Below the pieces are notes generated by a model. The model was not told the origin of the DNA, made no database searches, and saw only the letters and a program-made list of their open reading frames with translations. 64,000 bases of DNA, taken from the IMG/VR virus record IMGVR_UViG_3300044542_000402; one strand, written 5' to 3'. The translations under genes and the position numbers were made by a program. The stretch comes from an uncultured virus (IMG/VR IMGVR_UViG_3300044542_000402) (Duplodnaviria; Heunggongvirae; Uroviricota; Caudoviricetes; Herelleviridae). Below, piece by piece: positions 19,796 through 56,749 of the stretch (positions are counted from its first letter, which is position 1; the number at the start of each line of letters is the position of its first letter).

Positions 19796-19805
19796 GGAGC
19801 ACATC

Positions 19806-20726: not shown

Positions 20727-20739
20727 TCCGATCACCGCG

Positions 20740-20779
20740 ACGAGTGATCCCGGTGAGGTCCCTCACCGGGATCACTCGT
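20740..20779. repeat. 19-bp perfect inverted repeat directly upstream of relaxase (terminator or oriT part)
   Basis: ACGAGTGATCCCGGTGAGG-TC-CCTCACCGGGATCACTCGT. Confidence 0.85.
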
Positions 20780-20806
20780 TCAGCACCAGTGGAAGGGTGA
20801 GCCGCT

Positions 20807-24078: not shown

Positions 24079-24303
24079 CATGCGACGAACGGCCCGGTGG
24101 ATGATGATCCACCGGGCCGTTCGTCATCCTCGTCGACATGGACCATCCGGATCGTTGCGCCCCGGGCGAACGAATGCTTGAGGAATGATCCATCTATAGG
24201 TTATAGTAGGTTCATCCACATCGGAGGGCGAATGCCTCCCCGGATGGATGCCATACAGCGGCGCGGTTCACAAGGAACCGCCCACCGGATCGAGGAGCAC
24301 CTC

Positions 24304-24885: not shown

Positions 24886-24906
24886 TCCCATCCCTGCCGC
24901 CCCCAC

Positions 24907-24945
24907 CGGAACGACCCCCGGATTATCGATCCGGGGGTCGTTCCG
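24907..24945 (+). terminator. Terminator hairpin
   Basis: 17-bp stem CGGAACGACCCCCGGAT/ATCCGGGGGTCGTTCCG. Confidence 0.75.
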
Positions 24946-25036
24946 CGTCCGGGGATCGTTCATCGGGTCGATGATCCGGATCGTGATTACTGATAGACTT
25001 CTGACTGGTATTCCAGACCAATCGAAAGGATCGGAC

Positions 25037-26839: not shown

Positions 26840-26958
26840 ATCGTCATCCGGATCATCATCTGCTTGTTGCATCCGATGATGATCTCAGAGTATCTTCATA
26901 TATGAGAACAATCGTGAGACCAATCGCGTATCGGATCGACTGAAGGGACGCCCGCGCC

Positions 26959-29088: not shown

Positions 29089-29109
29089 GCCGGCGCTGAG
29101 CACTCCGGA

Positions 29110-29141
29110 TCAGAGCGGGGGTCCCCGGACCCCCGCTCTGA
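29110..29141 (+). terminator. Terminator hairpin
   Basis: TCAGAGCGGGGGTCC/GGACCCCCGCTCTGA. Confidence 0.7.
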
Positions 29142-29225
29142 GTCGTATCAGGATCACCACGAACAGGACCGACATGACTGACAGCGCACGAGGAACATCA
29201 CGATCCGGCACGGACAAGGACTGAC

Positions 29226-33239: not shown

Positions 33240-33343
33240 GGGCGTTCATCATCGAGCCGGAGGAGTGACATGCTCGTCCGGCTCGATGCGATTCACAATC
33301 CGGATGGGAATGGGAGTCGTGGATTCCTCGGCGCATTACGACT

Positions 33344-35401: not shown

Positions 35402-35480
35402 TGTGGATGAGTGATCTGAATGGAAACGGCATTGTCATGTGAATGTGGCATGATGATCAATATCGGCGTAAACTGATGAT

Positions 35481-37451: not shown

Positions 37452-37597
37452 CTCCTGACAGGTGTGCTGTCTGATCGCGACTCGCCTCATATACGAGAAT
37501 GATCCGAAACACGATCCGAATGGGTGTAGGATCTGACCATCAGGATCGCAGCGGAACGCCGCATTGACGATCATCGGATCGGTCAGGAGAGTCACTG

Positions 37598-40500
37598 ATG
37601 GAGAACAGCCACGGAATGCTCCGCTACCAGCGCGAGTTCATCGTCCACCAGGTCATCACGAGGGCCCGCCGGCAGACCCGCACCACCCTGCCGCTGTCGA
37701 CGGGCCGGGCCGTGCGCGAGCGCGTGGAGCAGCTCGGCGGGCCCCGGGTCATGACCGGGGACCGGGAGGCCGACGACAAGGGGTTGGGCGACTTCCTCGA
37801 CGCCCTCGACCAGGCCATGACCGAGATCGTCCCCGGCTACATCTCCCCGTTCGCCACCCACGATCGCACCGACCCCGCTCTGCGATCCATGACGCAGGCC
37901 TTCAACAAGGGCACGGATCTCCATCGAGGCCCCGACGGGCGGGTCGTCGCCAGCGGATCATTGCCCTTGTCGCCCTACGACCCCCGGTGGTCCGGACGGG
38001 CCAGTGTCCGGGCCGCCGGCACCGCGCTGTCCTACATCCATGCCGACGACATCGACGTCCTGGCAGACGGCCGTCCCGATCTGGCCTGTGAGGAGGTCGC
38101 CGACAACGCCCGGGTCTTCCACACCGAGGTCGACCGTGACGGCATCCGCAGGTCCGTGGCGGCCGGGACCGCCCGTTCCGATGAGGACGCCGCCGGTCTC
38201 ACCGAGCTGGCGACCCACATGAGCGAGCGCGAGTACGCCCGGTGCCGCGACTGGGTCCTCGACGGCGGCCGGACGCTCGACTCCGACGGGCGCACCGGCC
38301 CTGTCGACCGCACCCGGTTCATGAGCCGGGCCGCGCTGCGCCGCTCGCTGGCCGTCCTCGACGATCTGGACGCCCAGGGCATCGACTACGAGATCAGCCC
38401 CGATCTTCATCCCGGGCAGATCAAGGCCCGGCTGGCCGACTCCGGCATCGAGATCCGCCTGTCCGACGTCGTCGATCCCACCCGTCCCGGCGGGCGCAAT
38501 GCCGAGACCTACGTGGGATCGCGCATCTACGACGACGGCGTCGTGAGCTACTACGCGGTCTCCGGGGGACGCGGCCAGGCCACCACCAACTACTCCCCCA
38601 CCCCTGCCGAGGCCGTGGACCTGCTCCATGTCGCCCAGGGCCGCCCGGTCGCCCGGCACGATCGCCCCGACATCACGATCGGGACGGCCGTCGCACCCAC
38701 CGGCGGAACGCGTTCGGGCACCCGGCGGCGCAGTGACGCCTACCTCGATCCGTCCCGCGGCAAGACGGCCATGTTCGCCGCCACCACGACCCGGGGCCGT
38801 ACCGGGCGCGAGACCGTCTTCATCCATCGCGACGCCGCCGACCACACCCTGCCCGAGTACCGCAGCCCGGAGACGACCCGGGACTACCTGCAGACCATGG
38901 TCTCCAGCGCCCGGGCCAACTTCATCGCCGAACTGGGTGTCGACCGGCTCATCGAGGACTACCGCCGTCAGGTGCGCGACGAGCTGGCCAGCCCCGATCA
39001 GGTCGAGATGCCCGAGTTCTCCGGCGACACCGAGATCGCCGCCATCCAGCGCTCCTACTGGGACGTGCTCACCGGGGCCCGCACCACCCTGCTGCGACCC
39101 GGGGCCACCACCGAGATGGCCGAGGCCCGTCTCGGCGAGATCGGCGAGACGACGCCCGACCTGGGCAATCTGGCCTACACCGGATCGGCCGAGGAGCAGA
39201 TCCGGGCCCACGCCTTTGACGCGGTGGGCGAGCTCATCGGCACCTTCGAGCCCGAGCCCCACCTGGTCGGCGACCAGTGGGTCGACCAGCGGTTCGATCC
39301 GATCCGCGTCGTCCGGTACGCCGACTCCTCGGAGAACCGGTGGACCACGCTGGACTCCCTGGCCGCGGCCTGCCGCGACCTGTCCGCGGAGCCCGAGACG
39401 ATCGACGGCGTCGAGATCACCCGTCCCCGTCCCATCGGTCCCGGCGAACTGCTGGGCACCGGGTTCGAGCACGACCGCTTCGCCGACCGCCTCGTCCGCT
39501 TCTCCCCCACCGACGCCCATCCGATCGAGACCGACCCCTCCCCGTTCATCCGTGCGATGGGCGAGGAGGTCCGCGGTGCACTGGAGCGCAACGCCGTGAC
39601 CCCCGGCGACATCCTCATCGACGACTCCGGGGTCATCGAGTGGCACGGTCGCAAGGTCTTCAACCGCGACGTCGCCCGCTCGGCCTCCGGACGCGACCCG
39701 GTCGAGGTCACCGGGGTCATCGGCCAGGTCTTCGCCCCTGGCGACCACGGCGAGATCGCCACCCGCTTCGCCTCCGGGGACAACTCCCTCATCGTGCCCG
39801 GGTACCGGGCCCGTATCGCCGCCCAGCGGCCCGGGGAGCATTTGTCCGTCGAGGAGCGTACCCTGCTGCGCGGCTACCGCCAGGAGATGGCCGAGGCCAT
39901 CTCACACCGCATCGGTGTCGACGTCCTGTCGGGCCGCGGGTCGGTCGGCGACCCGACCGTTCTCAACCGGGTCTACTCCCGGCTCTACGGCACCGCGCAT
40001 CCTCTCGATCATCTCGAGCGCCACACCGGTCCTGACGGCGAGCTGGATCCCATGACCGCCGCCGTCATCGACACCGAGGCCCGTCGCATCCGCTACGGTA
40101 CCGAGATCGGCGAGGGCTCGACCATCTATGCCGAGTACGCCGCCGCGCACAACAGGGGCACCGATCCGGCAGATGACAACCATCGCGATCCGTGGATGCT
40201 CACCGAGGGCCGCAACATGGTCGTCCTCACCGGTCCGGACCGCGACGGCGTCGCGCCCCCGGCCGGCTATCTCGACCCGATGATGACCGGATCGGCCACC
40301 AATCAGGGCGTCGTGCGCTACCTCACCGCCGGTGCCGAGGTCGCCCCCGACGGGCACATCACCCCCGGCGATCCGGATACCGCGGAGGGCACCCGCGCCC
40401 CGCTCATGCTGCGTCCCGAGCTCGGTACCGTCGGCCACGACGCCTTCGATCGTCAGCTCATGGCCACCACCAACCTCATGGCCGCCTCGCAGGTCACCGG

Positions 40501-43500
40501 GCCGACCGGCACCGCTCTGATGACGTTCGGCGGATGGGGAGCCGATGACGGCATCGTCGTGAGCCGTGAGTTCGCCGAGAGCCACGCCATCAACGGGGCC
40601 GACGACGAGCCCCGGTCCCTGGTTGTCGGTGACAAGCTGTCCGACCTCCACGGCAACAAGGGTGTCATCAGCCTCATCGTCGACCGCCAGATGGACCCGG
40701 ATGCCGCCCGCGAGCAGGGCTTGGAGACCGAGGTCGCCTGGTTCGCCGCCAATCCGGGTATGGATGTCGTGATGAGTCCGTTCAGCCTCATCAGCCGGCG
40801 CAACGCCGGTGCCGGGCGCGAGCTCATCGACAGGCCGGACGACGAGATCGGTCGAGAGCGGGCCCGGCGCGTCTACGAGAACATCGCCGCCGGGCGCATC
40901 GAGTCCGACCCCTACGACGATGATGACGAGGCCACCGTTCTGCTCACCGAGCTGGAGCCCGGCGAGACGATCACCATCACCGACCCCGATGGGACGAGCG
41001 TCGAGGGCACCGTCGTCGGCGATCGCGACGATGCGGCCGGCACCCTGCCGGTCGCCGGGCCCGATGGCGTCCGGTTCGACGTCGAGGCGATCAGCGGCCG
41101 GTCCGTCGACGACCCGGGACGCACCGTCGCCTCGGCCACGCGCCTGGCCGACCGGGTACGGGTCGCGGCCCGCTCGGGTGTGTCCTTCGACGCCTTCGAG
41201 GCCTCCGGGGTCGGTCAGGACTTCGTCGTACCCCACGTCCGGTCTGCCGCGGCAGGGTTCCGCGGCGATCTCGTCGCCCCCGACGGCACCGTTCAGGAGG
41301 CATCCGTCGCCCCGATGCGGTTCATCGTCACCCATATGGCCGTCGACGAGAAGACCCAGATCTACGACGATGAGGCCGTTCTGGCCGGCAAGGGCCGGCG
41401 CGCCAGCTCCCAGCTCGCCTGGGCGCTGGAGAGTGCCGGGGCCGATGCCGTGATGCGCGAGTTCTACGGATCGAACTCGGGCACCGAGGCCGACCTGAGG
41501 GAGTACCTGAGGGTGGCCGGGCTCACCATGGACGCCACCGGGACCCTCGGGGTGCTGGGCACCGACACCGATCTGCTTGACGACCGCACCCTCATCCGCA
41601 CCCCCGAGCTCATCCATCGCCTCGACCGTGACGGCCGCGAGACCGGCCGGGTCGACGTGGCGGCCATGCGGCGCGACTTCGGGGCTCTCATCGGAGCCTC
41701 CGGGGGCGATCTGGAGATTCCGTTCCCGCTCACCACCCCGGCCGGGCAGACCCTGCCGGCCGGCGAGACGCCCGGGACCTACAGGCTGCCGGTGCTCTCC
41801 AGTCATCTGCGGGCCGGGATGGAGTTCGCCGACGGCTCGACGATCACCCACGACTACACCCGCAACTACCTCGACATCTACAACCATGTCGTGGCCTGGC
41901 GGGCCAACCAGGAGCGTCTGGACGCCAACCGCGCCGCGGTGGAGGCCGATGATCAGCCGCTGCTGTCCAACCGGGATCTCGATCGGCTGAGCGGTGACCA
42001 GGCGCGTCACCGGGCCGGTGCCGAACGGGCCTACCGGAGCCTGACCCGCGACATCACCGAACGGGTGCTCAACGGGGCCGAGAAGCGGAACTTCTTCCGC
42101 ACCGGGCTCATGGCCAACCGACTGCCCGACTCGGCCACCGCTGTGTGGACCGCCGACCCCCGCCTGGACATCGACCAGATCGCCGTCGGTTCCGACATGG
42201 CCCGCGAACTCGATCTGAGCGACGGCGACACCACTCTGGTGTGGCGCGATCCGATCCTGCGCGACTCCGGGGTCCGTGCCATGAGGGTCGCCGTCCACGA
42301 CGGTCTCACCGGCGTGGCCATCAACCCGGTGAGCGACAAGAGCTTCGACGGCGACTTCGACGGCGACTCGGTCGCGGTGGTCAAGCTCCATTCGAAGGCC
42401 GCCATCGCCCAGGCCACCGAGAAGCTCGGTGTGGCGGCCAACCTCGTCGACCGCGGAGTCGTCGATGAGAACGACGCGCATCCGCTGGCCACCCAGGTGT
42501 CCCTGGACACGAAGGTGGCGCTGCACCGCAACCCGGAGCTGGCCGACGAGTTCGACTCGGCGGTCCGGGAGGCCAATCGTCTGGCCGCATGGCGCGATCG
42601 GTCCGAGGCCGTCGCCGAACTCCCCGACGACCGGAGCGAGGAACTGGCGGTTCGTGCCGGCCTGTCCGAGATCCGGGCGTCGGCCGCCGATCTCACCGAT
42701 CAGCTCTCGGACCTGTACCGGAGCGCTCAGCGCGGCGAGTTCGGTTCGGCGCTGAGCTTCGCCGACGAGGCCCGGCACGTGGCGTCCATGCAGCGGGTCT
42801 GCGTCGATACCGGGGCCAAGGGCAACAGCGCCAAGCTCGATGATTATGAGAAGGCGCTCCGGTACGGGCTCACCCGCACCGACCAGGAGCAGGCCATGTA
42901 CGCCACCGCCGTCAAGGCCCAGGGCACCGGGCTGGGGGGCTCCTACTCCCAGCGCGCCGTCCGCGCCCTGCGCGACACCGATCTCAAGGCGGTGCTGGAG
43001 CTCACCCAGCCCGTCACCCAGTCCATCCTCCAGGTGAAGCACAACGCCGCCGAGGCCCGCGGCAAGTACGAGGCCCTCCAGGGACCCGGGCGGGCCCTGT
43101 GGCGCGGACAGGCGCTGGCTCATGACCAGGGTCGTTGGGCGGTCGTCCGCGATGCGCAGGGCGAGCCCGTCGCGGCCACCACCGAGGGGTGGAAGCAGCA
43201 GGTCCGCGAGTTCTACACCTCGTCCGACGGGTTCCACGTCCCCTTCGATCCCGAGTACGTCGACCGGATCGCCACGGCGCTGTCCGACGACCAGGGCCGC
43301 ATGCGCAACCTCGAGGAGGATCCCGACCTGGCCGGTCACCTGTTGGATCGGATGGCCTACGGCGGCTCCTTCGAGGACCTCGCGAAGGCCGCGAAGAACC
43401 ATGAGAACCTCTTCGACGGGCACGGGGCCGAGCTGTTCGCCTGTGCCACCACCCGCCGGGCCCGTGAGCAGGCCGCCCGTGACGTGGCGATCCGGGAGGC

Positions 43501-43735
43501 GATCGATGACATCCCGCCGTGGGAGCGTGACCTCGATCAGGCCGCGCTCGACACCCCGGTGAGTGCGCCGGTCGCACCCTCGCCGGCCGTCACCGCCCCT
43601 GACACCCGTGACGGCGGCACCCTGCGCGGCGCGAACCGGCGCAGCCGGTACGCACCCACCCTGTCGATGGCCGGGACACGGACTCCTGTGTTCACCGACA
43701 CCGAGTCCGAGGACGACCAGGAGATGGAACTGTGA
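37598..43735 (+). CDS. Single-chain two-barrel DNA-dependent RNA polymerase (fused minimal beta+beta', NCgl1702-like)
   Basis: beta motifs GWGADDGIVVS, GDKLSDLHGNKGVIS (40628-40672), DVVMSPFSLISRRNAG, HMAVDEK, AWALES; beta' motifs FFRTGLMANR, WRDPIL, SFDGDFDGD (DFDGD 42353-42367), TGAKGN, bridge-helix-like TAVKAQGTG, trigger-loop-like QPVTQSILQVKH. Confidence 0.9.
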   Translation: MENSHGMLRYQREFIVHQVITRARRQTRTTLPLSTGRAVRERVEQLGGPRVMTGDREADDKGLGDFLDALDQAMTEIVPGYISPFATHDRTDPALRSMTQAFNKGTDLHRGPDGRVVASGSLPLSPYDPRWSGRASVRAAGTALSYIHADDIDVLADGRPDLACEEVADNARVFHTEVDRDGIRRSVAAGTARSDEDAAGLTELATHMSEREYARCRDWVLDGGRTLDSDGRTGPVDRTRFMSRAALRRSLAVLDDLDAQGIDYEISPDLHPGQIKARLADSGIEIRLSDVVDPTRPGGRNAETYVGSRIYDDGVVSYYAVSGGRGQATTNYSPTPAEAVDLLHVAQGRPVARHDRPDITIGTAVAPTGGTRSGTRRRSDAYLDPSRGKTAMFAATTTRGRTGRETVFIHRDAADHTLPEYRSPETTRDYLQTMVSSARANFIAELGVDRLIEDYRRQVRDELASPDQVEMPEFSGDTEIAAIQRSYWDVLTGARTTLLRPGATTEMAEARLGEIGETTPDLGNLAYTGSAEEQIRAHAFDAVGELIGTFEPEPHLVGDQWVDQRFDPIRVVRYADSSENRWTTLDSLAAACRDLSAEPETIDGVEITRPRPIGPGELLGTGFEHDRFADRLVRFSPTDAHPIETDPSPFIRAMGEEVRGALERNAVTPGDILIDDSGVIEWHGRKVFNRDVARSASGRDPVEVTGVIGQVFAPGDHGEIATRFASGDNSLIVPGYRARIAAQRPGEHLSVEERTLLRGYRQEMAEAISHRIGVDVLSGRGSVGDPTVLNRVYSRLYGTAHPLDHLERHTGPDGELDPMTAAVIDTEARRIRYGTEIGEGSTIYAEYAAAHNRGTDPADDNHRDPWMLTEGRNMVVLTGPDRDGVAPPAGYLDPMMTGSATNQGVVRYLTAGAEVAPDGHITPGDPDTAEGTRAPLMLRPELGTVGHDAFDRQLMATTNLMAASQVTGPTGTALMTFGGWGADDGIVVSREFAESHAINGADDEPRSLVVGDKLSDLHGNKGVISLIVDRQMDPDAAREQGLETEVAWFAANPGMDVVMSPFSLISRRNAGAGRELIDRPDDEIGRERARRVYENIAAGRIESDPYDDDDEATVLLTELEPGETITITDPDGTSVEGTVVGDRDDAAGTLPVAGPDGVRFDVEAISGRSVDDPGRTVASATRLADRVRVAARSGVSFDAFEASGVGQDFVVPHVRSAAAGFRGDLVAPDGTVQEASVAPMRFIVTHMAVDEKTQIYDDEAVLAGKGRRASSQLAWALESAGADAVMREFYGSNSGTEADLREYLRVAGLTMDATGTLGVLGTDTDLLDDRTLIRTPELIHRLDRDGRETGRVDVAAMRRDFGALIGASGGDLEIPFPLTTPAGQTLPAGETPGTYRLPVLSSHLRAGMEFADGSTITHDYTRNYLDIYNHVVAWRANQERLDANRAAVEADDQPLLSNRDLDRLSGDQARHRAGAERAYRSLTRDITERVLNGAEKRNFFRTGLMANRLPDSATAVWTADPRLDIDQIAVGSDMARELDLSDGDTTLVWRDPILRDSGVRAMRVAVHDGLTGVAINPVSDKSFDGDFDGDSVAVVKLHSKAAIAQATEKLGVAANLVDRGVVDENDAHPLATQVSLDTKVALHRNPELADEFDSAVREANRLAAWRDRSEAVAELPDDRSEELAVRAGLSEIRASAADLTDQLSDLYRSAQRGEFGSALSFADEARHVASMQRVCVDTGAKGNSAKLDDYEKALRYGLTRTDQEQAMYATAVKAQGTGLGGSYSQRAVRALRDTDLKAVLELTQPVTQSILQVKHNAAEARGKYEALQGPGRALWRGQALAHDQGRWAVVRDAQGEPVAATTEGWKQQVREFYTSSDGFHVPFDPEYVDRIATALSDDQGRMRNLEEDPDLAGHLLDRMAYGGSFEDLAKAAKNHENLFDGHGAELFACATTRRAREQAARDVAIREAIDDIPPWERDLDQAALDTPVSAPVAPSPAVTAPDTRDGGTLRGANRRSRYAPTLSMAGTRTPVFTDTESEDDQEMEL

Positions 43736-45462
43736 GTACCGATCGCCAGGAGCCCCGCGACGGGCTCACCGCCGCCGACTGGCAGGCCATGAATGGTGCC
43801 GAGGACGCCCGCCAGTCCCGATGGCTGGCCAATCAGCGGGTGATGAACGGCGACGACGAGCCGAACGTGCCGGCACCGGTACGCACGCGCCGTGGGCCGT
43901 CCCGTCGTGGGAGTGACGGCCCGGGTCCCGGGGAGGAGGCTGGAAAGATTCCAGCCCCCGACTGGGAGAGACTGTGGGACAGGTGGGGCCTCCCCTCTCA
44001 GAAGGGATGGGCCGAGGCGCGCGATCTCCGCGCGAGAGAGGCCATCGCCGCCAAGCGCCGCGAGGATCGGAGTCCCTCCGAGTCGCTGCTGCTGGCCCGG
44101 TCCCGGGCCAGCGACACCGGGCGGCGCTACGTCGCCGCCCTGGCGGCCGCCGGCCAGTTCGTCCCCGGGGTGACCCGCGATCAGCGCCGTGAGACGATCC
44201 GGGCGAATCACGACCGGTACGCCCGGGCCATGATGGCGGTGGCCATGGAGCCGCTCAAGGACGGGGTGGACACCGATTCCCTCATCGAGAGCCTCGGCAT
44301 CATGACCGTCATGTCGGCGCTCTCCCCCACCTTCCGTCACCAGGTCGGCGATCATTTCAATCCTGTCCGCCGCGCCGTCGTGCGCCGCATTGACCGCCAG
44401 GCCGCGATCGACATGTACAACCGGCGCACCGACGACAAGTCCCCCTCGAAGGTCCTGCGCCGGCGCTACGACGCCATGATGGAGCGCAACCCCGATTACG
44501 TGGAGCCCCTCACCCCCACGGCCGTCGGTCTCACCGAGGTCGCGCTGCTGCGCGACGCCGCCGACCGGATGCGCCGTCCCGGCGTCGACGCCGACGAGAT
44601 CCGTCGTATCGACGGCGAGTACCGGGCCACCGTCGCCGAGCTCTACGAGCAGGCCGCCGCCGACGGCCTGGACCCCGAGCGGACCGTCGCGGTGAGCCGC
44701 CGGGTCCTGGCCGAGCAGATGATCCAGGACCCGGATCTCGCGCCTCTCATCACGGGGCTGTCCGAGGGATCCGTACGGGTGCATGTCGAACAGATCCCTC
44801 AGCGCGGGCGTCATCACAGGACTGTCGCCACGCTCGTCCACGACGACGGGACCGAGGCCGACCTGTCGACGCGCGGCGTCTCGGAGCGGGGATCCCGTAT
44901 CGAGTCGGGCTACACGCTGCGTCCGCCCCGGTCGATCGACGCCCACGAGCGCGTCATCGAGGCCACCGTCGTGGATCAGATCGTGCCGTCCAGCGTCACG
45001 AGGGGCACCGCCGATCCTGTGCGCACCCCGGTGTCGGTCCGTACCGATGTCCTTGAGAACTACGTGTGCGGACGCACCGCCGACGGGGCGGCCTTCGGGC
45101 CGGCCGGAGCGCTGATGGCGGCCATGAGGGCCGACGGGCAGGATGCCGGGGCGGCCCGGCGCGCCTACAGCCACGGTCTCGTCGCCGCCGTCCGGGCCGC
45201 CAGGTCGGTTGAGCCCGAGCGCATCGACGCCTGGCTGGGGGACCTCGGCACATTCACCGACGAGTTCGAGGCCCGTGCCGAGGCCGACTCCCGGACCGCC
45301 ACGGATCTTCTCGCGGCCCATATCAGGGACCGTCGCGACCGGACCGCCGGGATGCCGCGGTCCGGACTCACGCCGGTCGAGCCGTCGGACGTCGAGGCAG
45401 CCGATGACGAGCCCACCGTCATCATCCCCACCGTCGAGGATCCCGGACCCGACATCGCCTGA
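43732..45462 (+). CDS. Hypothetical helical protein translationally coupled to RNAP gene
   Basis: GTGA overlap; 576 aa with element-like codon usage. Confidence 0.7.
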   Translation: MSTDRQEPRDGLTAADWQAMNGAEDARQSRWLANQRVMNGDDEPNVPAPVRTRRGPSRRGSDGPGPGEEAGKIPAPDWERLWDRWGLPSQKGWAEARDLRAREAIAAKRREDRSPSESLLLARSRASDTGRRYVAALAAAGQFVPGVTRDQRRETIRANHDRYARAMMAVAMEPLKDGVDTDSLIESLGIMTVMSALSPTFRHQVGDHFNPVRRAVVRRIDRQAAIDMYNRRTDDKSPSKVLRRRYDAMMERNPDYVEPLTPTAVGLTEVALLRDAADRMRRPGVDADEIRRIDGEYRATVAELYEQAAADGLDPERTVAVSRRVLAEQMIQDPDLAPLITGLSEGSVRVHVEQIPQRGRHHRTVATLVHDDGTEADLSTRGVSERGSRIESGYTLRPPRSIDAHERVIEATVVDQIVPSSVTRGTADPVRTPVSVRTDVLENYVCGRTADGAAFGPAGALMAAMRADGQDAGAARRAYSHGLVAAVRAARSVEPERIDAWLGDLGTFTDEFEARAEADSRTATDLLAAHIRDRRDRTAGMPRSGLTPVEPSDVEAADDEPTVIIPTVEDPGPDIA

Positions 45463-48574: not shown

Positions 48575-49115
48575 ATTTCAATGAAGAGCTTCGTCATACA
48601 ACGAAGCAATGGCTCCTCATGCACATCATGACATGAGCCTACCCAAACCTCAATGAAGGGCTTCGTCATACAACGAAGCAATATCCCGGTCATCCAGCGG
48701 TCGGGACGAGACCACTCACCTCAATGAAGGGCTTCGTCATACAACGAAGCAATCCGGGGGACGCTCGCACCGATCGCGGAGGCGGCCACACCTCAATGAA
48801 GGGCTTCGTCATACAACGAAGCAATCCGCATCCGTGCGGCGTGCATCGAGCACAGGCCATAGACCTCAATGAAGGGCTTCGTCATACAACGAAGCAATAC
48901 TCTGGGCCGAGTCGACGCCGTGGACCTCGGTAGTTCACCTCAATGAAGGGCTTCGTCATACAACGAAGCAATGCTCCTGCTTGACGGCGTGCTCGCTGTC
49001 CTTCCACGAACCTCAATGAAGGGCTTCGTCATACAACGAAGCAATCCCACGACGCCTTCAAGACACTGGGGGCCAAGCGACCTCAATGAAGGGCTTCGTC
49101 ATACAACGAAGCAAT
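48575..49115 (-). CRISPR. CRISPR array 1: 8 repeats (36 bp), 7 spacers (34-38 bp), type I-G
   Basis: + strand ACCTCAATGAAGGGCTTCGTCATACAACGAAGCAAT at 48647, 48718, 48790, 48863, 48937, 49010, 49080; degenerate trailer at 48575; 7-bp hairpin GCTTCGT/ACGAAGC. Confidence 0.98.
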
Positions 49116-49299
49116 AGCGGGTCTGAGAAACCAGTTCTCATAAGGAACGACCCACCTCGTTCGCGAGAGGTGGCGTGTGACTGAGCACAAGACCGTCGGT
49201 GTCTATCGCAGAACTGATGTTAATGTGGTTCTGACAAGGGACGATGACACCGCGAGCGGTCCCCGGCTCTCACCGGGGCCTACCACCGCTCGCGGTGCG
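49116..49299 (-). promoter_or_regulatory. CRISPR leader 1
   Basis: Opposite the degenerate end; motifs shared in register with leader 2. Confidence 0.8.
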
Positions 49300-50337
49300 T
49301 CACACTGGTGCAAAGAGTGTCGCCAACGGTTGGAACGTACCGTCGAGGATCATACGCTCCGGGGCGCTGAGCTTGCTGTTCTTCACCGTTCGGATGGGGA
49401 ACGTGCACGCTCCGATGACGCCCCGGGCCGACAGTTCATCGGCTGCGAGCTGTCGTCGTTCCCTGTTGTTCGAGGCGAGGTCGGCGACAACGCGAGATGC
49501 CATCATCGCCCGCCAGAATGCGATCGACACAGGGTGTTCCAGAACGGGGATGACGGCGCTGGCGGGGTGCTCGGCGTAGTGAGGATGAGCGCCCGCCGTC
49601 GCATTGACCTGCCCGACGAGCGGAACAAGTGTGAAGCTCGAGATGCCCCACAGGCCGCACCAGGCCAGTGCCGCGTCGGTGGGACGGGGAGTTGTCAGGC
49701 CGGTCGAGGTCCGCGAGGTCAGCCGGTTCTGGCCTGTAGCGATATCATGACGTTGTCGGCCGGTGATTCCGTCGAGGATCTTATCGGGCTCCCATGTGGA
49801 AATCGCGTCAGCGAGTTTGGCGAGTCTGCTCCAAGTGAAGGTTTTCCCCCGGCTTCTCGACACCATTTCCCACCGGGACGCCGCCCAGTCTGTTTTGAGT
49901 TCTCCTTTCTTGTCGATGATCCAACGACCCGGTTCACCCAGACCGGCGATCATGAGTCGATCCAGATCGGTGAGATCATCGCCGTCCAGGGCGGAATTGC
50001 GCATCCGGTCCAACTGTGCCCACCAGTCGATGGCCACGGTTGGATCATCATTATCCTCGGCGGGCTTGACTCGTGGGCTGAAGACGCCCTGAGGGACCTT
50101 TCCGCCCGAGAGTGTCAACTGCACCCACGAGTCCTTGCCGGTGTGACGCCGGGCGTGGGCCTTGACCGCCTCTCCCGTGTCGGGGCCGTCCCAGGACAGC
50201 CGGGCCCCGGCGGGATCGCCGTCGGTCCATCCGAGACGGACGTGCCGGGCACCGGCCTCCTCCAGGATGCCGGCGAGCCCGGCGAGGGCGAAGTGGGTGA
50301 GGGCGGATTCCAGTCCTCCGATGATGTCGATGATCAT
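49300..50337 (-). CDS. cas8g: Type I-G large subunit Cas8g (short Csb3-type, 345 aa)
   Basis: ATGA-coupled after cas3; ALTHFALAGLA, ASRWEM, TDAALAWCGLWG. Confidence 0.75.
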   Translation of the reverse strand: MIIDIIGGLESALTHFALAGLAGILEEAGARHVRLGWTDGDPAGARLSWDGPDTGEAVKAHARRHTGKDSWVQLTLSGGKVPQGVFSPRVKPAEDNDDPTVAIDWWAQLDRMRNSALDGDDLTDLDRLMIAGLGEPGRWIIDKKGELKTDWAASRWEMVSRSRGKTFTWSRLAKLADAISTWEPDKILDGITGRQRHDIATGQNRLTSRTSTGLTTPRPTDAALAWCGLWGISSFTLVPLVGQVNATAGAHPHYAEHPASAVIPVLEHPVSIAFWRAMMASRVVADLASNNRERRQLAADELSARGVIGACTFPIRTVKNSKLSAPERMILDGTFQPLATLFAPV

Positions 50338-52958
50338 GATCCCTCCCGGGAGACACGGCAGTCCGCTGCACGCAGGACGGCCTCGAGATAGCAACAGGCC
50401 CATGGGCCGATCCGGTGATCCGTGCGATCGATGAGCGAACACCACTCTCCGTCGGCGAACAGGTCGCCGATGAGGCGTCGGAGATCCTCGTCGTCACCAC
50501 TGTTGACCAGTGAGGTGGCGTCGGTCTGCGGCAGGACGCGGCCGTGGCCGTGACTCGTTCCGATGAGGCGCGCCACCAGTTCCGGATCGGCGGCCGCCGT
50601 CAGATACGGCCAGGCCACCGCCACTGAGCGCAGTTCGTGACGCCAGCCGGCGGGCAGCCCGGAGGCCCATCGGTCCCATCGCGCCCTCTGGGCGCTGACG
50701 ATGCTCTTGGCCAGCGGCACTGAACCCTCCGGTGCGTGCAGACGGTATCTCTGGAACCGGTCGTCGGCCTTCCCGTCGTCATGGTGGAGACCCGCCAGTC
50801 CCAGGTCGGTGCAGACGTCGGGGACCAGCCCGAGACTGCGGGCCAGTTGTTCGGCGAGATCGGCGACCGCACTTTGGTGGGCCTCCAGTGTCACCGTGTG
50901 ACCGGACCGGGTCCAGGTCTGGGCCAGCGACTCGTCGGACGCCATGACATCTGCGGGGCTGACGACCAGCCACGGCAGACTCGTACCGTCATCGGGGCAC
51001 GGACCGCAGATGACGACCTGTGCGCCGCTCGGATCGAAGAGTTCCTGGGCCTCGTCCCTGCCGATACCGGCGAGATCGGTGAGCCAGTGATCGTCGGGGT
51101 CCCCGTCCAGGATGACGCGGGTGCCGTCCGGCCCCCAGACGGGGTCGGCGAGGTGCTCGGACTGACTCGCGTCGGCGACGACGACGCCTCCCCGTGTGAG
51201 GGAGTGCCCGTTATCGACGACGACCAGGTCGCCCGCCCTCAGATGCACGTGGCCGTCCGCCTCGGTCGTGATGGGCGACACGTCGCCGTCCCGTTCCAGG
51301 AAGGCACGGGCACGCAGACCGTCGGCGTCCAGGATCTGTGCGACGACGGTCTGCAGGGTGCCCAGGGCCACGGGGAAGATCTCGGCGTCGCACGGTGGTG
51401 TCACGGTCAGTAGGGGCAGCGTCAGCGCGTCGTCGTCGGGCATCCGGTCGCGGATCACCAGTCCTGCCCGGATCTGATCGGGCTCCAGCGAGTCCCGGAT
51501 CCACAACGAGAGCTCCTCGTCGACAAATGCCTGGTCGCTGGTGGCGCGCCACCGCCACACGTCGCCGACGTGGGGAGTCTTGATGAACTCCCGCTGCGGA
51601 GTCGAGGCCGGCGGTGTGACCGCCATGATCGCAGCCGGGCTCGCCCCCTCGGACTCCGGCAGCCGCTCCAGCCACTCCAGTCCGGTCTGCAGGTCGGCGG
51701 CGGGGTATGGGAGTTGGTCGGTGATGTGGTCGGTGTCGGGGCCGACCACGATGATCGGCCCCGCGGCGCGCAGTCCTCGGCGGTTCACCCGCCCGAATCG
51801 CTGCGCGAGAGCGGTGGCCGGTGCCAGTTCGGTGACCAGCCCCGCAAGGTCCGTGTCGATGCCGACCTCGGCGGTCTGTGTCGCCACGAGGAACGACGGC
51901 ACCGTGGCGTCGGACGTCGCATCGAATCCGAACAGCGTGGGATGGCGTCGTTTGAGGGCCTCCAGATCCAACGGTCGCATGGGGCCGGTCCAGCACGGGC
52001 AGTGGCCCAGGGCCTCGGCGAGGCGCGTGGCGGTGTCGATGCGGTTGACGATGCACCCGATCACCCCGTCGGGCATCGTCTCCCGCAGAGCTCTCGCCTC
52101 ATCGGCGAGAGCCGTGATGTATTTCTTGGCAGTTTTCTTGCCGGTCCAGGCCGGGGAGACGATCATCTGCACGGGCTTCCGGCGGGTCAGTCTCGGCGCG
52201 AGACCGGGGTCGGCGAGATCGCCGGACGACAGCCCGATCACCGTCGTGGAGTCCTCGACGCGTGCGGTGGCCGAGGACTCCACGACCTGCAGTCCCGGCA
52301 CGCCGAGATTCTCCGCGGCCCGGGTGGTGTACCGGGAGACCCATCGAGCACTTGCCAGAAGCTGACGCGACAGGTGCGCCTCGTCGATGACGACTGCCGA
52401 GTCGAGGCCCAGCAGCCCGGCCTCGCGTGGACGGGCTGCGCGCGACGTGCCGTAGCCGCGCATGAGGAGCCGGCTGCCCCACATGTCCGGGGTGGCCGCG
52501 ATGACGGCGCATGCACCCGGATCGTCAATCCATGCCCGGTCGATGCCGAGACCGCCCCGCAGGTCGGTCACCACGAGGGGCCGGGCTGCTGGGTCCATGG
52601 CCAGCGATCGCAGCACCCGGCTCATCTCGTCGGCCAGGGGATCTGCGGAGGTCTCCAGCCAGTCCCGGACACGAGTGGCCCGGTCGGCCTGGGAGTCGAC
52701 CAGGGCCCGCCGGTCCACGACGGTGCACAGACGCCGAGGCAGTCGCGGCCCGGCACCGTCGGCCGACAGCGCCGTGGCGAAGATGTGCACCTCCACCACG
52801 GCGCTCTTGCCCGAGCCGGTCGGCGCGGTGATCGCGTCGGGCCACCGTCCCTGCTCGATCAGTGAGGCTAGCAGCCTCGTCTGCCAGTCGAACGGCGTGT
52901 GGTCATTGTTGATGGCGGCAAAGAACGCCGGGAAGTCGGCGATGGACAGTGATGTCAT
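50334..52958 (-). CDS. cas3: Type I-G Cas3 helicase with C-terminal HD nuclease (874 aa)
   Basis: PFDWQ, APTGSGKS, VDRRALVD, IDEAHL, SAT, VATQTAEVG, QRFGRVNRRG; HQ, HHDDGK, WRHE, SHGHGR. Confidence 0.95.
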   Translation of the reverse strand: MTSLSIADFPAFFAAINNDHTPFDWQTRLLASLIEQGRWPDAITAPTGSGKSAVVEVHIFATALSADGAGPRLPRRLCTVVDRRALVDSQADRATRVRDWLETSADPLADEMSRVLRSLAMDPAARPLVVTDLRGGLGIDRAWIDDPGACAVIAATPDMWGSRLLMRGYGTSRAARPREAGLLGLDSAVVIDEAHLSRQLLASARWVSRYTTRAAENLGVPGLQVVESSATARVEDSTTVIGLSSGDLADPGLAPRLTRRKPVQMIVSPAWTGKKTAKKYITALADEARALRETMPDGVIGCIVNRIDTATRLAEALGHCPCWTGPMRPLDLEALKRRHPTLFGFDATSDATVPSFLVATQTAEVGIDTDLAGLVTELAPATALAQRFGRVNRRGLRAAGPIIVVGPDTDHITDQLPYPAADLQTGLEWLERLPESEGASPAAIMAVTPPASTPQREFIKTPHVGDVWRWRATSDQAFVDEELSLWIRDSLEPDQIRAGLVIRDRMPDDDALTLPLLTVTPPCDAEIFPVALGTLQTVVAQILDADGLRARAFLERDGDVSPITTEADGHVHLRAGDLVVVDNGHSLTRGGVVVADASQSEHLADPVWGPDGTRVILDGDPDDHWLTDLAGIGRDEAQELFDPSGAQVVICGPCPDDGTSLPWLVVSPADVMASDESLAQTWTRSGHTVTLEAHQSAVADLAEQLARSLGLVPDVCTDLGLAGLHHDDGKADDRFQRYRLHAPEGSVPLAKSIVSAQRARWDRWASGLPAGWRHELRSVAVAWPYLTAAADPELVARLIGTSHGHGRVLPQTDATSLVNSGDDEDLRRLIGDLFADGEWCSLIDRTDHRIGPWACCYLEAVLRAADCRVSREGS

Positions 52959-54517
52959 GGTTCCTCCGGGGTATCGACGGGGACGAGCAGGCCCCCGCCC
53001 AGGTGGCGGGACTGCCCGATGGCCAGCAGGGCGCGGTCGGTGATGAAGTTCCCCAGATCGAGACTGGCCTCGTAGGGCTGGACGACGCCGAGCGAGTCGG
53101 GGATTCTGTGGACATAGCGCTCGACCCTCGAGTCCGGGATCCGGCGGGTCGCCAGAACGCGGGGCGCGTTCTCGGTGGCCGACACCACATCGGTCATGGA
53201 CCAGTAGTCGCGGGCCGGTACGGGATCGAACCGGTCGCGGCCGACATGGAACAACGACAGCAGGGCGGCCCGTTCGAAGTCCCACCGGTCTCCATTCGGA
53301 CGACTCGGTTGACGTCGGGTCTCCGGTACCAGCCCGTGCAGACTGCGCCATGTGCGGTGCCAGCCAGGCTGGACCTGCGGCCAGAAGGTTCTCAGGTCGA
53401 TGCCGGACGCCCGGCCCAGATGCAGCCGGCCCAGGGTGCGCGACCACACCTGAAGATGGGGAGCGTCGAGCGTGTGGATGAGCCGGGCGCGATCGGTGAC
53501 GGGCAGATCCCGCGGCAGCATCAGGAGCAGAGCACCGTGAGGGAAGTCCTCGACCGGTCTGGTCACCGGTGCCAGGCCGGGCGCGATGTACTGGATGGCG
53601 ATGTTGTTGGCCGGTCGGGCCGCGCCCTCGGTGCGATGCCCCGTGATGCTGGAGGGAACGTCGGGGGCCATTCTGGCCACCAGCATCCTGTGGAGGGCCG
53701 TGCACCAGGCGACGACGTCGTCGGCGCGGATCCGGCGCGACGTCGTCACGATGGGCAGCAGGATACCGGACGGCCAGGGCTCCGGCGGTGGAGGGGGCGC
53801 GGGACGCTCGTACTGGATGTTCCGCAACCCTTTCGTGGGGACGGATGAGGCTTTCGTGGATTCCTTACTTTTCACCGCATCGTTGGCCGACGTGGGCAGC
53901 TTCTTCGGATGGGCCGTGCTCCAGATGTCCTGCAGGGCGTCCAGACGCCCTGCAGCAGGCGTTCGCACAGCGATCCCCCGGGGATGGAGCTGGGACGGAT
54001 GCGCCACGAGGCAATGGGTGATCTCTATCGGACCGGTCTCCAGGATCACGGGCGAGTCCGTCTCCCCCAGGCAGGACACGTCGGCGCAGAGCCGTGCGAC
54101 GGTCTCGGCCACCTCGTCGGGAACCTCCGGCCAGAGCCATCCGAGGGCTCCGGCCAGAGCCGTGGCCCCACCGGTCGCCCGGGACGCGATATCGATATCA
54201 CGGATGTGCGTCTTCGGATCGAGCTTCTTGAGAACACCCTGGTTGCGATAGGCGATGAGGCCGCTGGCGAATCGTGCGTGATCGGGAATCATGAGCGCGG
54301 CCGGTGGGTGGGCCTCCAGCCATGTCAACGCCGTGGCAGACGCATCGGAGACGACCAGCCGCCCGCCACGACTGTCCGCGGCGGTCCCGGACCCGGCCGC
54401 ATTGACCAGGGCCGAGTACAGCCGGGCCGTGTCGGGCAGTTCGGCGATCGAACCGTCCTTGGCATGACCCTGGAAGACGCCCAGCGGGAAACGGGCCGTG
54501 ATGGACAACCGGGTCAT
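52955..54517 (-). CDS. csb2: Type I-G Csb2 (Cas5/Cas6 fusion, 520 aa)
   Basis: ELPDTARLYSALV, CLGETDS, C-terminal Gly loop IGQSRHLGGGLLVP. Confidence 0.92.
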   Translation of the reverse strand: MTRLSITARFPLGVFQGHAKDGSIAELPDTARLYSALVNAAGSGTAADSRGGRLVVSDASATALTWLEAHPPAALMIPDHARFASGLIAYRNQGVLKKLDPKTHIRDIDIASRATGGATALAGALGWLWPEVPDEVAETVARLCADVSCLGETDSPVILETGPIEITHCLVAHPSQLHPRGIAVRTPAAGRLDALQDIWSTAHPKKLPTSANDAVKSKESTKASSVPTKGLRNIQYERPAPPPPPEPWPSGILLPIVTTSRRIRADDVVAWCTALHRMLVARMAPDVPSSITGHRTEGAARPANNIAIQYIAPGLAPVTRPVEDFPHGALLLMLPRDLPVTDRARLIHTLDAPHLQVWSRTLGRLHLGRASGIDLRTFWPQVQPGWHRTWRSLHGLVPETRRQPSRPNGDRWDFERAALLSLFHVGRDRFDPVPARDYWSMTDVVSATENAPRVLATRRIPDSRVERYVHRIPDSLGVVQPYEASLDLGNFITDRALLAIGQSRHLGGGLLVPVDTPEEP

Positions 54518-54519
54518 GA

Positions 54520-55764
54520 TCAGGACTCCTCCTGCGCGTCGTCGTCCGCCTCGGCGGTCATACCGCCGAGAACGATGGGGTTGCCGGTCACCTCGAAGAT
54601 CCGGCCGTCCCAGGTGATCCCGGCCGTGGTGCGTGCGGTCTCGACGGCGGCCTGGAGCATCGGTCCGGTGACCTCCGGCTTGAGCTGGGCGAGGTCGCGG
54701 TGCGTGCCGTGACGGGTGTCCAGCTCGACATGGGCCGGACCGGCCTCCCTGAGGTCGCAGTTCGCCCGGAGCGCCAGCTCTTCGTCGGACAGGGCGATGC
54801 CGTGGAGCACCAGGGCGGCCAGCAGGGCGCGGCACGCCACAGTGGCCTCCTCGTCGTCGCCGAACCGGATCTGGCGCAGGGCGGCGAACGACAGCACGTG
54901 CGACCGGATGATCTGACTGCAGGACACCAGCCCCAGGGCCTCTAGGTTCGGGGGGATGGACCCCAGGCCGAACTTTGAGGCGGAGAGCTTCTCGCCCTTC
55001 TTCGCCGCCGTGGCCTTCTTCGTGATCTCATCGACCGTGCTCTTGCTCATCCAGGCTTTCTGGACGTCGAGCACCCCCAGTGTCTCGGGGCCGGTGAGGT
55101 GCACGCCGGAGGCCACGGTGTCGGTACGGGCCGCTCCGCGATGGCCCGGGTGACGGCCTCGGCCGGTCTGATCGGCCAGGACGCCGATGATCTCCCCGAC
55201 TGCCGTCGAACGGTACCGGTTCTGGTGGGATCCGCGGGTGGAGTCCCAGGACCCCAGGGCCAGGCTCAACGGGCTCAGCGCCAGTAGAGCGGTGGCGTCG
55301 GCGGGACCGGCGTTGCGGGCCGCGATGTAGTCGGGGCATTCAATGACCGGCTTGCCGTCGTGGGTGCCGACACGAATATGGGCGTCGGTGTAGCGGTGCG
55401 GCAGCTGGTAGTCGAAGAAGGTGAGATCCGGGTCGTCATCCCTGTAGTAGGTGACCCGGATGCTCGGCATCCCGGCCAGAGCGGGGTCGCCGGCGCGGAT
55501 GGCCGCGGCGACGGCGCTCTCGATCCGGTTGAGCTGGCTGGCTTTTCCGTCGACGAGGACCGTGTCGCGGGCCTCGCCGTCGATGTAGCGGGGCTCGAAG
55601 TCATAAACGCCCTTGGAGCTCCGGCCCTTGCCGGTGGTGTAGCGGGCCGGGGCGATACCGGCGTGCGGCCCGGCGGCCGGGACGAGGTCGGTGATCGAGG
55701 AGAGGCAGGTCGAACCTCCGGCGCGACAGGCGGCGTCGAGATCGGCGTAGGTGAGGGTGTCCAT
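54520..55764 (-). CDS. csb1: Type I-G Csb1 (Cas7)
   Basis: IAPARY, VDGKASQLNRIE, LPHRYTDAHIR, SLALGSWDS, LSFAALRQIRFG, LRANCDL. Confidence 0.93.
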   Translation of the reverse strand: MDTLTYADLDAACRAGGSTCLSSITDLVPAAGPHAGIAPARYTTGKGRSSKGVYDFEPRYIDGEARDTVLVDGKASQLNRIESAVAAAIRAGDPALAGMPSIRVTYYRDDDPDLTFFDYQLPHRYTDAHIRVGTHDGKPVIECPDYIAARNAGPADATALLALSPLSLALGSWDSTRGSHQNRYRSTAVGEIIGVLADQTGRGRHPGHRGAARTDTVASGVHLTGPETLGVLDVQKAWMSKSTVDEITKKATAAKKGEKLSASKFGLGSIPPNLEALGLVSCSQIIRSHVLSFAALRQIRFGDDEEATVACRALLAALVLHGIALSDEELALRANCDLREAGPAHVELDTRHGTHRDLAQLKPEVTGPMLQAAVETARTTAGITWDGRIFEVTGNPIVLGGMTAEADDDAQEES

Positions 55765-55845
55765 GAAATGGATCCTTTCCGGTGGTGATAGTCCTCACAT
55801 ATCCCGGAACGGCTGTGCCGTTCCGTCGAGAGCTGAGGACTGAAT

Positions 55846-56315
55846 ATGTGAGTGAAGGGCTCCGTTGGAAGACGGAGCGATGGCGTGTAATACATGCCCT
55901 ATCCCGAAACTCCCAACACCTCAATGAAGGATCTTCTTAGAAGAATGGGTGACTCATTAACTGGCCTGAATCCGCTGAGCCTTCCTATCCCGATGAAGGG
56001 CTCCGTCAGAAGAAAGAGCAACACCTGAACCCCACAATTCCCCACAATTCGAGAGGAAACCTCAATGAAGGACTCCTTCAGAAGAAGGAGCAACAGCCAG
56101 ATAACGACGTTATCGCGGACCTGGCCAAGACCTCAATGAAGGACCCCTTCAGAAGAAGGAGCAGCTACAGGCCATCCCTGATCTTGGCCTTCCCGTTGAG
56201 GCCACCTCGATGAAGGACCCCTTCAGAAGAAGGAGCAGCCCGCCGGACTGGCCAGGTGGTAGATGGAATCCGTATCGCAACCTCAATGAAGGACCCCTTC
56301 AGAAGAAGGAGCAGC
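55846..56315 (-). CRISPR. CRISPR array 2: 7 repeats (36 bp, progressively degenerate), 6 spacers (33-40 bp)
   Basis: + strand ACCTCAATGAAGGACCCCTTCAGAAGAAGGAGCAGC at 56130, 56204 (1 mismatch), 56280; variants at 56059, 55987, 55918, 55846. Confidence 0.93.
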
Positions 56316-56498
56316 AGCGGTCGTTGTAAACGGGTCTTGACAAGGTTGCGAACACATCCTCTGCGAGAGGTTTGATGATGCGGCGTTGTCGCGCTCGATG
56401 ATGCCCGGTGCATCATTATTCAATATGTGTCCGACAAGGGGTGATGGTAACGCGAGCGGTCCTCGGGGCTCATTGGATGATATGACCGCTCGCGTTAC
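56316..56498 (-). promoter_or_regulatory. CRISPR leader 2 (probably also drives cas operon)
   Basis: Same motif phasing as leader 1; same strand as and upstream of csb1. Confidence 0.75.
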
Positions 56499-56503
56499 AG
56501 GGC

Positions 56504-56749
56504 TCACCACCTGGCGACGAGGTCCCGGGGTCGGGACTGGCGCTCAGCCAGGAACGCGCTCAGATCCTCGGGGTCGACGCGCCATTTGGCGCTGGTTCCG
56601 GGGCCGGACACATTGACGGCGCGCAGTTCGCCGCTGTGGATGAGTCGGCGCACCCACCACGGGGTGACGCCGAGTGTCTCGGCGACGGTTGTCGTGTCGA
56701 GCAGGGCGTTGCGAGTGGCCAGTTCGTGGAGGTCGGCGTCCAGGGTCAT
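56504..56749 (-). CDS. Excisionase-family HTH DNA-binding protein
   Basis: LLDTTTVAETLGVTPWWVRRLIHSGELRA...WRVDPEDL. Confidence 0.82.
   Translation of the reverse strand: MTLDADLHELATRNALLDTTTVAETLGVTPWWVRRLIHSGELRAVNVSGPGTSAKWRVDPEDLSAFLAERQSRPRDLVARW

Follow-up and report, generated by a model that had tools for sequence, protein, structure and literature searches.

The IMG/VR record IMGVR_UViG_3300044542_000402 contains a CRISPR-Cas locus within the stretch of 64,000 nucleotides (nt) analyzed here, which is referred to as the window. By its signature gene Csb2, the locus is classified as type I-G, with the adaptation module being absent from the window. All parts lie on the minus strand in the order leader 2, array 2, csb1 (cas7g), csb2 (cas5-6g), cas3g, csb3 (short cas8g), leader 1, and array 1. 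This arrangement had been proposed in a first-pass annotation of the DNA and is confirmed by a repeat finder, profile searches, PADLOC, and a structure alignment. Going along the minus strand, the features are as follows:

56504..56749, minus strand: small HTH_17 (excisionase/MerR-like) gene, PF12728 at 2.8e-9, upstream of leader 2
56316..56503, minus strand: leader 2, between the stop of the HTH_17 gene and the first repeat of array 2
55846..56315, minus strand: CRISPR array 2, seven repeats, the last three of them degenerate, and six spacers of 33–40 nt
54520..55764, minus strand: csb1/cas7g, 414 amino acids (aa)
52955..54517, minus strand: csb2, a cas5-cas6 fusion, 520 aa
50334..52958, minus strand: cas3g, helicase and C-terminal HD nuclease, 874 aa
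49300..50337, minus strand: csb3, short Cas8g, 345 aa
49116..49299, minus strand: leader 1, beginning straight after the csb3 stop
48575..49115, minus strand: CRISPR array 1, eight repeats of 36 nt, seven of them identical and the trailer copy degenerate, and seven spacers

The spacers of array 1 measure 34–38 nt, and the repeat finder gives 7 + 6 = 13 spacers of 33–40 nt for both arrays together. ATGA overlaps join the csb2 stop to the cas3 ATG and the cas3 stop to the csb3 ATG; all four cas genes look intact and translationally coupled. The same gene order is found in 59 of 80 related loci, and the spot that cas2 occupies in relatives is taken here by the HTH_17 gene. A promoter and terminator scan of 48200–56900 gave no signal better than shuffled sequence, and Rfam and tRNA scans of the window returned nothing, including no complete tRNA. 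Spacer 4 of array 2 (56023–56058) contains an internal tandem duplication, with GAATTGTGGGG occurring twice.

The signature protein Csb2 matches TIGR02165 over profile positions 2–492 of 492 (7.9e-81, 272.7 bits; cut-off 45) and PADLOC Cas56g at 8.7e-160. According to PMC9638904, the assignment to type I-G rests on Csb2 and needs no adaptation module. Csb1 is identified as the Csb1/Cas7g subunit by PF09617 (9.4e-26, 91.2 bits; cut-off 25) and PADLOC Cas7g (2.8e-22), with the NCBIfam model TIGR02570 staying under its cut-off (31.1 vs 38 bits). Cas3g matches TIGR02621 across the whole profile (positions 1–854 of 854; 3.1e-196, 654.9 bits; cut-off 400), and its HD match lies at residues 940–1066 of the 1123-aa open reading frame (ORF) used in the profile search.

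The fourth gene, csb3, is matched by no Pfam or NCBIfam model. It is assigned to the Cas8g family of large subunits by PADLOC (Cas8g PDLC01374, 3.3e-84, positions 2–325 of 327), and a protein search returned 26 relatives, one of which is named Csb3 by a source. Its AlphaFold (AF2) model has a mean predicted local distance difference test score (pLDDT) of 84. A Foldseek search with this model gives 8b2x as the top match (E 3.2e-4), and alignment to the Cas8g chain of 8b2x (VIA) yields Z 14.9 with a root mean square deviation of 4.1 Å over 256 aligned residues, the runner-up being a type I-A Cascade chain at Z 8.3. The alignment spans residues 9–385 of the 649-residue chain. Judged by this predicted fold, the fourth gene is a short Cas8g variant without the C-terminal part; the label cas8g given in the first pass thus stands for such a variant only.

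Intactness was assessed for Csb1, Csb2, and Cas3 by counting the alignment columns that are conserved in at least 95% of 59–67 relatives. Csb1 retains 61 of 61 such columns, Csb2 40 of 41 (the exception being Y295R), and Cas3 108 of 109 (the exception being V300I). Among the retained positions are the C-terminal block G501, Q502, R504, H505, and G507–G509 of Csb2 (G-Q-x-R-H-x-G-G-G) and the Walker A, DExH, and HD-region residues of Cas3, in line with the earlier statement that the helicase and HD motifs of Cas3 look intact. Because the conserved columns are retained in these three proteins, the module looks interference-competent, which agrees with the first-pass assessment.

No gene fits between csb3 and leader 1, as had been claimed for cas4, cas1, and cas2, because the conserved inverted repeat of the leader starts no more than about 10 nt past the csb3 stop (49302–49300). 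A search for adaptation genes, which the first-pass annotation had proposed for the rest of the replicon and the host, gave the following for the 64-kb window. A tblastn search with the Cas4/1 and Cas2 proteins of two relatives gave no match. Clade hidden Markov models, built from 56 Cas4/1 and 55 Cas2 sequences and run on 1018 six-frame segments of at least 30 aa, found no Cas4/1 or Cas2 (best E-values 3.2 and 0.63). Pfam searches of 44 ORFs and PADLOC searches of 48 ORFs found no Cas1, Cas2, or Cas4. Hence, no Cas4/Cas1 fusion with Cas2 was found in the window, and "adaptation-less" holds for the locus and the 64-kb window only.

In the related loci—taken from one-genome-per-species contigs—an adaptation module is present in 71 of 80 cases, with cas4/1 lying directly after csb3 in 59 and upstream in 12. 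The other nine show none in the DNA examined; of these, only L007, L053, and L071 extend over 10 kb on the downstream side and about 4 kb on the upstream side. From this comparison, the adaptation-less state appears unusual for the clade and is not unique. The idea that the other adaptation-less type I-G loci form a mobile lineage was rejected: L007, L011, L053, and L071 lie among housekeeping or defense genes, and the DNA examined around them is free of genes for conjugation. The L007 locus (Nocardia transvalensis) adjoins UvrD-like, CoiA-nuclease, and Mrr genes and is also near a cluster of QueC, PTPS, radical-SAM, and GTP cyclohydrolase I genes; its surroundings (L007 1–3226 and 16573–19642) look like a defense island with a 7-deazaguanine pathway.

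The repeats of the two arrays have ACCTCAATGAAGG (plus strand) in common and differ in their hairpin sequences, just as first described. Read on the minus strand, each folds at nt 4–23 into an 8-bp stem capped by a 4-nt loop, followed by an identical 13-nt tail. For an analysis of covariation, 55 distinct arrays of the clade contributed one repeat each, both repeats of the window among them, and these were aligned without gaps. Hairpin pairing is kept in 85.9% of 440 cells, as compared with 55.3% in shuffles (none of 500 reach the observed value), and falls to 34.5–47.0% when the 3′ partner is slid. Changes on both sides of a pair occur in 133 cells and in seven of the eight stem pairs. In the tail, T26, C28, T30, and G32–G35 are invariant across the 55 repeats. 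Since pairing is kept through changes on both sides and the tail is invariant, what the family conserves is hairpin shape on the one hand and tail sequence on the other. On this basis, the two repeats are classed as two ordinary versions of the plan of the clade, and one Csb2 should process both arrays, as had been suggested before. Both repeats have the 36-nt length, the stem–loop, and the conserved 3′ tail that would give an 8-nt 5′ handle upon the predicted cleavage. According to PMC9638904, the hairpin is bound by the Cas6 domain of Csb2, which cleaves 4 nt past it and leaves an 8-nt handle; the conservation of hairpin and tail agrees with this mode of binding.

Leaders 1 and 2 are homologous and resemble the leaders that follow cas2 in the relatives L001 and G093. 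Common to all of them are an inverted repeat, GCGAGCGGT...ACCGCTCGCG, a CCCTTGTC box, a ACCTCTCGC box, and a CCGCT junction. Among 401 genomes of the family of locus L002, no array has the repeat of array 1, and the repeat of array 2 has a single relative, in G093, at 86–88% identity. A degenerate pattern for both repeats had no match in metagenome contigs and none in viral contigs.

Each array was searched against the same 401 genomes, of which only G047, a member of the Propionibacteriaceae family, matched; all 13 spacers were then compared by BLAST with 60 kb of the matching contig. Five of the 13 match one integrated mobile element of G047 within a stretch of about 24 kb (588.6–612.8 kb of one contig):

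A1_s2, G047 597399: 37 of 37 nt, 5′ TAC, in HsdM, beside HsdR
A1_s4, G047 610500: 37 of 37 nt, 5′ TAC, in a zinc-finger/HNH protein
A1_s5, G047 588615: 36 of 36 nt, 5′ TAC, in a MobA/VirD2-like relaxase
A2_s6, G047 591899: 31 of 36 nt, 5′ TAG, in a TraG-like coupling protein
A2_s4, G047 near 612795: partial match with a 3-nt indel and several mismatches

Together, the three perfect matches of array 1 amount to 110 of 110 nt. Pfam searches of 45 ORFs of the target region identify an rve integrase, PolA, a resolvase, IS200, Lsr2, a Gp49-like toxin, and the MobA/VirD2-like relaxase, as well as the TraG-like coupling protein, HsdM/HsdR, and the zinc-finger/HNH protein. G047 has no match to a Cas1 family and no Csb3 homologue. 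All five matches fall on one strand (two-sided p about 0.06), which is no more than a hint of priming. Four further spacers are matched in the metagenome run X13, where contigs match whole spacers and then continue into unlike sequence, so that the flanks could be read: A1_s6 (TAC), A1_s1 (TAG), A2_s1 (TAC, one mismatch), and A2_s2 (TTC). A 33-nt match of A1_s4 in a 7.6-kb contig of run X7 was rejected as a target because it has mismatches in the seed and its flank reads GAC. Neither the rest of the window nor the 80 related loci contain a match to any spacer.

Of the readable protospacer flanks, seven of eight are TAN on the 5′ side of the strand in CRISPR RNA (crRNA) sense, giving a putative protospacer-adjacent motif (PAM) of 5′-TAN. 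This motif agrees with the PAM of the csb3-type I-G system of B. animalis subsp. lactis, for which PMC9335239 describes a predicted 5′-TAN, interference with TAT and TAC, and an 8-nt handle. The spacer comparison suggested in the first pass led to an integrated element and a putative PAM, and the plasmid and phage collections yielded nothing above chance. Herein, a distant-mode search of the arrays stayed at chance level in the plasmid collection (E 0.1–0.5) and found nothing in the phage collection, and a megablast of the locus against plasmid records found no match. With five of 13 spacers in the element of G047 and none in the phage collection, the spacers match mobile elements rather than phages. 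The predicted guides are shown to match DNA of another mobile element, one from the same bacterial family.

The module itself is located next to genes for conjugative transfer. The features of the carrier are as follows:

8728–10446: tyrosine recombinase (integrase) ORF, by Pfam
10527..10572, minus strand: 3′ end of a tRNA-Lys(UUU), 46 nt, resembling an attachment (att) site and adjoining the integrase ORF
12509..45459, plus strand: conjugative backbone with an SLT/CHAP hydrolase, a MobL relaxase, a ClpB-like AAA+ protein, a coupling protein, and a 2055-aa RNA-polymerase-like protein, by Pfam
20801–23062, plus strand: MobL relaxase, by Pfam
29178–33236, plus strand: TraG/VirD4-like coupling protein, by Pfam

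The tRNA-Lys fragment, present once in the window, matches the 3′ end of G047's intact tRNA-Lys at 100% identity; it is probably an att site. The DNA to its left may belong to the same element in circular form or to a tandem neighbor. A contig of G019 (C43) is syntenic with 12.5–45.5 kb of the window at 26–67% protein identity. This contig has no cas genes, and G019 has no Csb3 homologue; the CRISPR module thus lies outside the conserved backbone as cargo.

The physical linkage of module and backbone was followed by placing contigs of four public runs on positions 46000–58500 of the window. Fifteen runs from 11 studies contain the region, most of them metagenomes of sludge and digesters. In X1 and X7, which are runs of two studies, a 38-kb contig has one end on 46000–48676 and by its size and placement would extend unbroken back to about 10543, inside the tRNA-Lys fragment. 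A single contig spans the whole cas operon in both runs, with no differences in X1 and 7 of 7073 positions in X7. From array 2, a further contig continues about 14.4–14.6 kb past 58500, that is, to about 72.9–73.1 kb on the scale of the window. The relaxase, the coupling protein, the SLT/CHAP hydrolase, the integrase, the att fragment, and the contig linkage in two studies bear out the earlier claim that the module is carried on a mobile element.

Several other features of the contigs stand beside this linkage. Between X1 and X7, the left flank of array 1 (46000–48273) differs at 31 of 2274 positions and the cas operon (49087–56159) at 7 of 7073, which would fit a recent exchange or sweep of the cas cassette. 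A 33-nt stretch at 46840–46872 is repeated on the same strand about 11 kb past 58500, outside the window, in those contigs of both runs that continue from array 2; the copies may be direct repeats around a cargo segment of about 23 kb that includes the CRISPR module. A contig of X13 with a depth of 8.6 joins 49044, in a repeat of array 1, to 56240, at the edge of spacer 1 of array 2, on opposite strands. This join could reflect a different arrangement of the arrays or an artifact of the assembly graph.

The window and the target element also have a toxin–antitoxin (TA) pair in common:

6885..7555, plus strand: HigB/Gp49-like toxin and HTH antitoxin, PF05973 and PF01381

Positions 5890–7659 are the only part of the window with DNA similarity to the target region of G047, at 94–95% identity. 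The counterpart of the TA region (window 5839–7555) is G047:C1:607077–608172, with the pair itself at G047 607289–608172 and 95% nucleotide identity. At the protein level, the toxins are 95.7%, the antitoxins 98.5%, and the small neighboring proteins 93% identical, and all three reading frames are open in both copies. Nucleolytic CRISPR systems of plasmids are described to avoid TA-bearing targets or to carry compatible TA families (Sunderhauf et al. 2026, PMC12945316). The locus fits the second of these routes, with the caveat that the att fragment separates the pair from the CRISPR module and the pair may belong to a tandem neighbor.

Taken together, the locus is likely an interference-only type I-G module (csb1-csb2-cas3-csb3, with a short Cas8g) that is carried as cargo by an actinobacterial conjugative element of sludge and digester metagenomes. 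Herein, each leader would drive its own array, and the Cas6 domain of Csb2 would recognize the hairpin and the invariant 3′ tail of both repeat types, its cuts yielding crRNAs with the 8-nt handle ATTGAGGT. Cas7g, Csb2, Csb3, and Cas3g would then find and degrade DNA with a 5′-TAN PAM, and the module would keep a rival element out of, or remove it from, cells that hold its own element. The spacers would have been acquired by a PAM-selecting Cas4/1-Cas2, which may have come from the host, working in trans on the conserved leaders, or from the element itself before being lost. Competition between elements, as proposed at first, is supported by the five spacers in the relaxase, coupling protein, HsdM, and HNH genes of the G047 element, one of these matches being partial. 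An elaboration that we regard as improbable holds that the two leaders serve as two intake points: each leader–repeat unit would suit the Cas4/1-Cas2 of a different host lineage of type I-G, memory would be updated across hosts, and the copy of the rival's antitoxin would let the element evict an addictive resident rival while sparing its new host.

A number of observations weigh against this interference-only, element-borne interpretation. A cas4/1-cas2 set could lie elsewhere on a longer contig or in the host, and the right end of the element is outside the 64-kb window. The integrase and the TA pair are separated from the module by the att fragment and may be part of a neighboring tandem element. 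On the side of the spacers, four of 13 (A1_s3, A1_s7, A2_s3, and A2_s5) are without any match, none of the 13 rises above chance in the plasmid or phage collections, and the flank of the A2_s2 protospacer is TTC, not TAN. Array 2 is partly decayed, and both of its matches in G047 are imperfect. Among the 15 runs with the region, none is on record as RNA.

The first of these points leads to the reading that the system is complete but split, its cognate cas4/1-cas2 lying outside the window on the same contig or element, as in Rothia and Nocardia loci. The 12 related loci with upstream cas4/1-cas2, separated by an array or several kilobases, provide a precedent, and the csb3 of the window is listed on contigs of up to 157 kb in the protein search. 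However, the adaptation genes of those 12 loci are at most about 4 kb from csb1, whereas none are found here in 7.5 kb upstream and 48 kb downstream, and the usual spot of cas2 before leader 2 is occupied by the HTH gene; a split system is hence considered unlikely. The state of array 2, which ends in three degenerate repeats and whose older spacers match their target imperfectly, could instead speak for a decaying, inactive remnant whose erosion began with the loss of the adaptation genes and whose spacer matches are fossils. Adaptation-less type I-G loci also occur sporadically in chromosomes (L007, L053, and L071). Such decay is hard to reconcile with the retention of nearly all conserved residues and of the ATGA coupling, with three perfect spacers in array 1 (110 of 110 nt) and a consistent PAM, and with an operon that differs by 0.1% between two studies and has no frame break reported, so that a remnant is quite unlikely.

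It is also conceivable that the module is not carried by the element and instead serves host defense from a chromosomal island next to it. This would be compatible with the only att-like site (10527–10572) being 38 kb away, with a right boundary outside the window, and with the backbone contig of G019 being devoid of cas genes in a genome that has no Csb3 homologue. Against it stand the contig that, by size and placement, would run unbroken from 48676 to about 10543 in X1 and X7, the right-hand contigs that continue about 14.4–14.6 kb past 58500, the lack of any housekeeping family among the 44 window ORFs scanned, and the spacers, which match a rival mobile element and none of the phage collection. 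A chromosomal island is therefore judged highly unlikely.

Compared with known systems, the interference-only module of the window is closest in plan to those of B. animalis subsp. lactis (PMC9335239) and P. freudenreichii ("type IU," PMC5644110), which have the same four interference genes, csb1-csb2-cas3-csb3 (cas8u1). Like these two systems, it has a 36-nt hairpin repeat with a ...CTTCATTGAGG tail and a putative 5′-TAN PAM, and the consensus repeat of the complete system of G093 is identical to the P. freudenreichii repeat printed in PMC5644110. Unlike in these two systems, no cas4/1-cas2 is found in the window, the carrier is a conjugative element, and two arrays with different hairpin sequences are present. 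Identity of the proteins to the nearest relatives is at most 52–66%, and the best Csb3 match in the 401 family genomes is at 54%.

The effector of Thioalkalivibrio sulfidiphilus (Protein Data Bank entry 8b2x, PMC9638904) likewise has Csb2 as a Cas5-Cas6 fusion; the Cas6 domain binds the repeat hairpin and gives an 8-nt handle, and Cas3 is a stable part of that complex. With Z 14.9, the Csb3 of the window aligns to this effector's Cas8g in the N-terminal part. The T. sulfidiphilus protein has 649 residues with a Cas11-like C-terminal bundle, whereas Csb3 has 345 residues and aligns to residues 9–385 only. A TTN PAM is given in PMC9638904 for another type I-G system, in contrast to the putative TAN of the window. 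The myxobacterial type I-G loci of PMC11237760 also have csb1-csb2 followed by cas3-cas8u1, sometimes without an adaptation module and with arrays scattered from the cas genes. They are described as chromosomal, with the repeat tail TTGAAGC, whereas the locus of the window lies on a mobile element and has identified targets.

With respect to its carrier, the module resembles the plasmid-borne CRISPR systems surveyed by Pinilla-Redondo et al. (PMC9071438), in which adaptation modules accompany 36% of plasmid vs 88% of chromosomal systems: it has a conjugative carrier, no adaptation genes, and spacers to core transfer genes of another element. Acquisition of spacers in trans is described for the plasmid type IV-A3 (bioRxiv 10.1101/2023.06.23.546257). 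Unlike the systems of these two sources, the present one is nucleolytic, belongs to type I-G, and sits on an actinobacterial element that integrates at a tRNA. With the study on TA barriers (PMC12945316), it has in common the pairing of a nucleolytic CRISPR system with TA carriage, the window being a natural, single case from Actinomycetota. Each notable trait is thus already in print—systems borne by mobile elements and lacking adaptation genes, type I-G loci with the same lack, and the carriage of matching TA pairs. New here are the matches of five among the 13 spacers to a single integrated element of G047. The locus is a clear, well-resolved natural case of an already described pattern and leaves the known picture unchanged. 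Its value lies in a natural pair for inter-element warfare in Actinomycetota, comprising a nucleolytic type I-G module with a conjugative carrier and an identified target element, with the putative PAM 5′-TAN, the target genes (relaxase, coupling protein, and restriction–modification methylase), and the matching TA pair in hand. Questions that become accessible are whether a type I-G module gains spacers when its own Cas4/1-Cas2 is missing, whether one Csb2 serves two repeats, and whether sharing an antitoxin lifts the TA barrier to offensive CRISPR.

Three further observations concern proteins outside the CRISPR locus. The 2055-aa protein of the backbone (37568–43732, plus strand) has weak matches to Rpb1 domain 2 (9.5e-7) and Rpb2 domain 6 (9.5e-5) and is kept at 49–54% identity in the syntenic backbone of G019; it looks like a fused two-barrel RNA-polymerase-like protein of the transfer backbone. 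Upstream of it, the proteins at 33269–35398 and 35472–37448 (plus strand) have five DUF4379 treble-clef zinc-finger repeats each and no counterpart in the G019 backbone. At the right-hand edge, a UvrD-like helicase (61245–63998, minus strand) runs off the window, with a LAGLIDADG_3 domain inserted at residues 232–291 and GajB-like matches in PADLOC; it may be an intein-bearing or a defense helicase.

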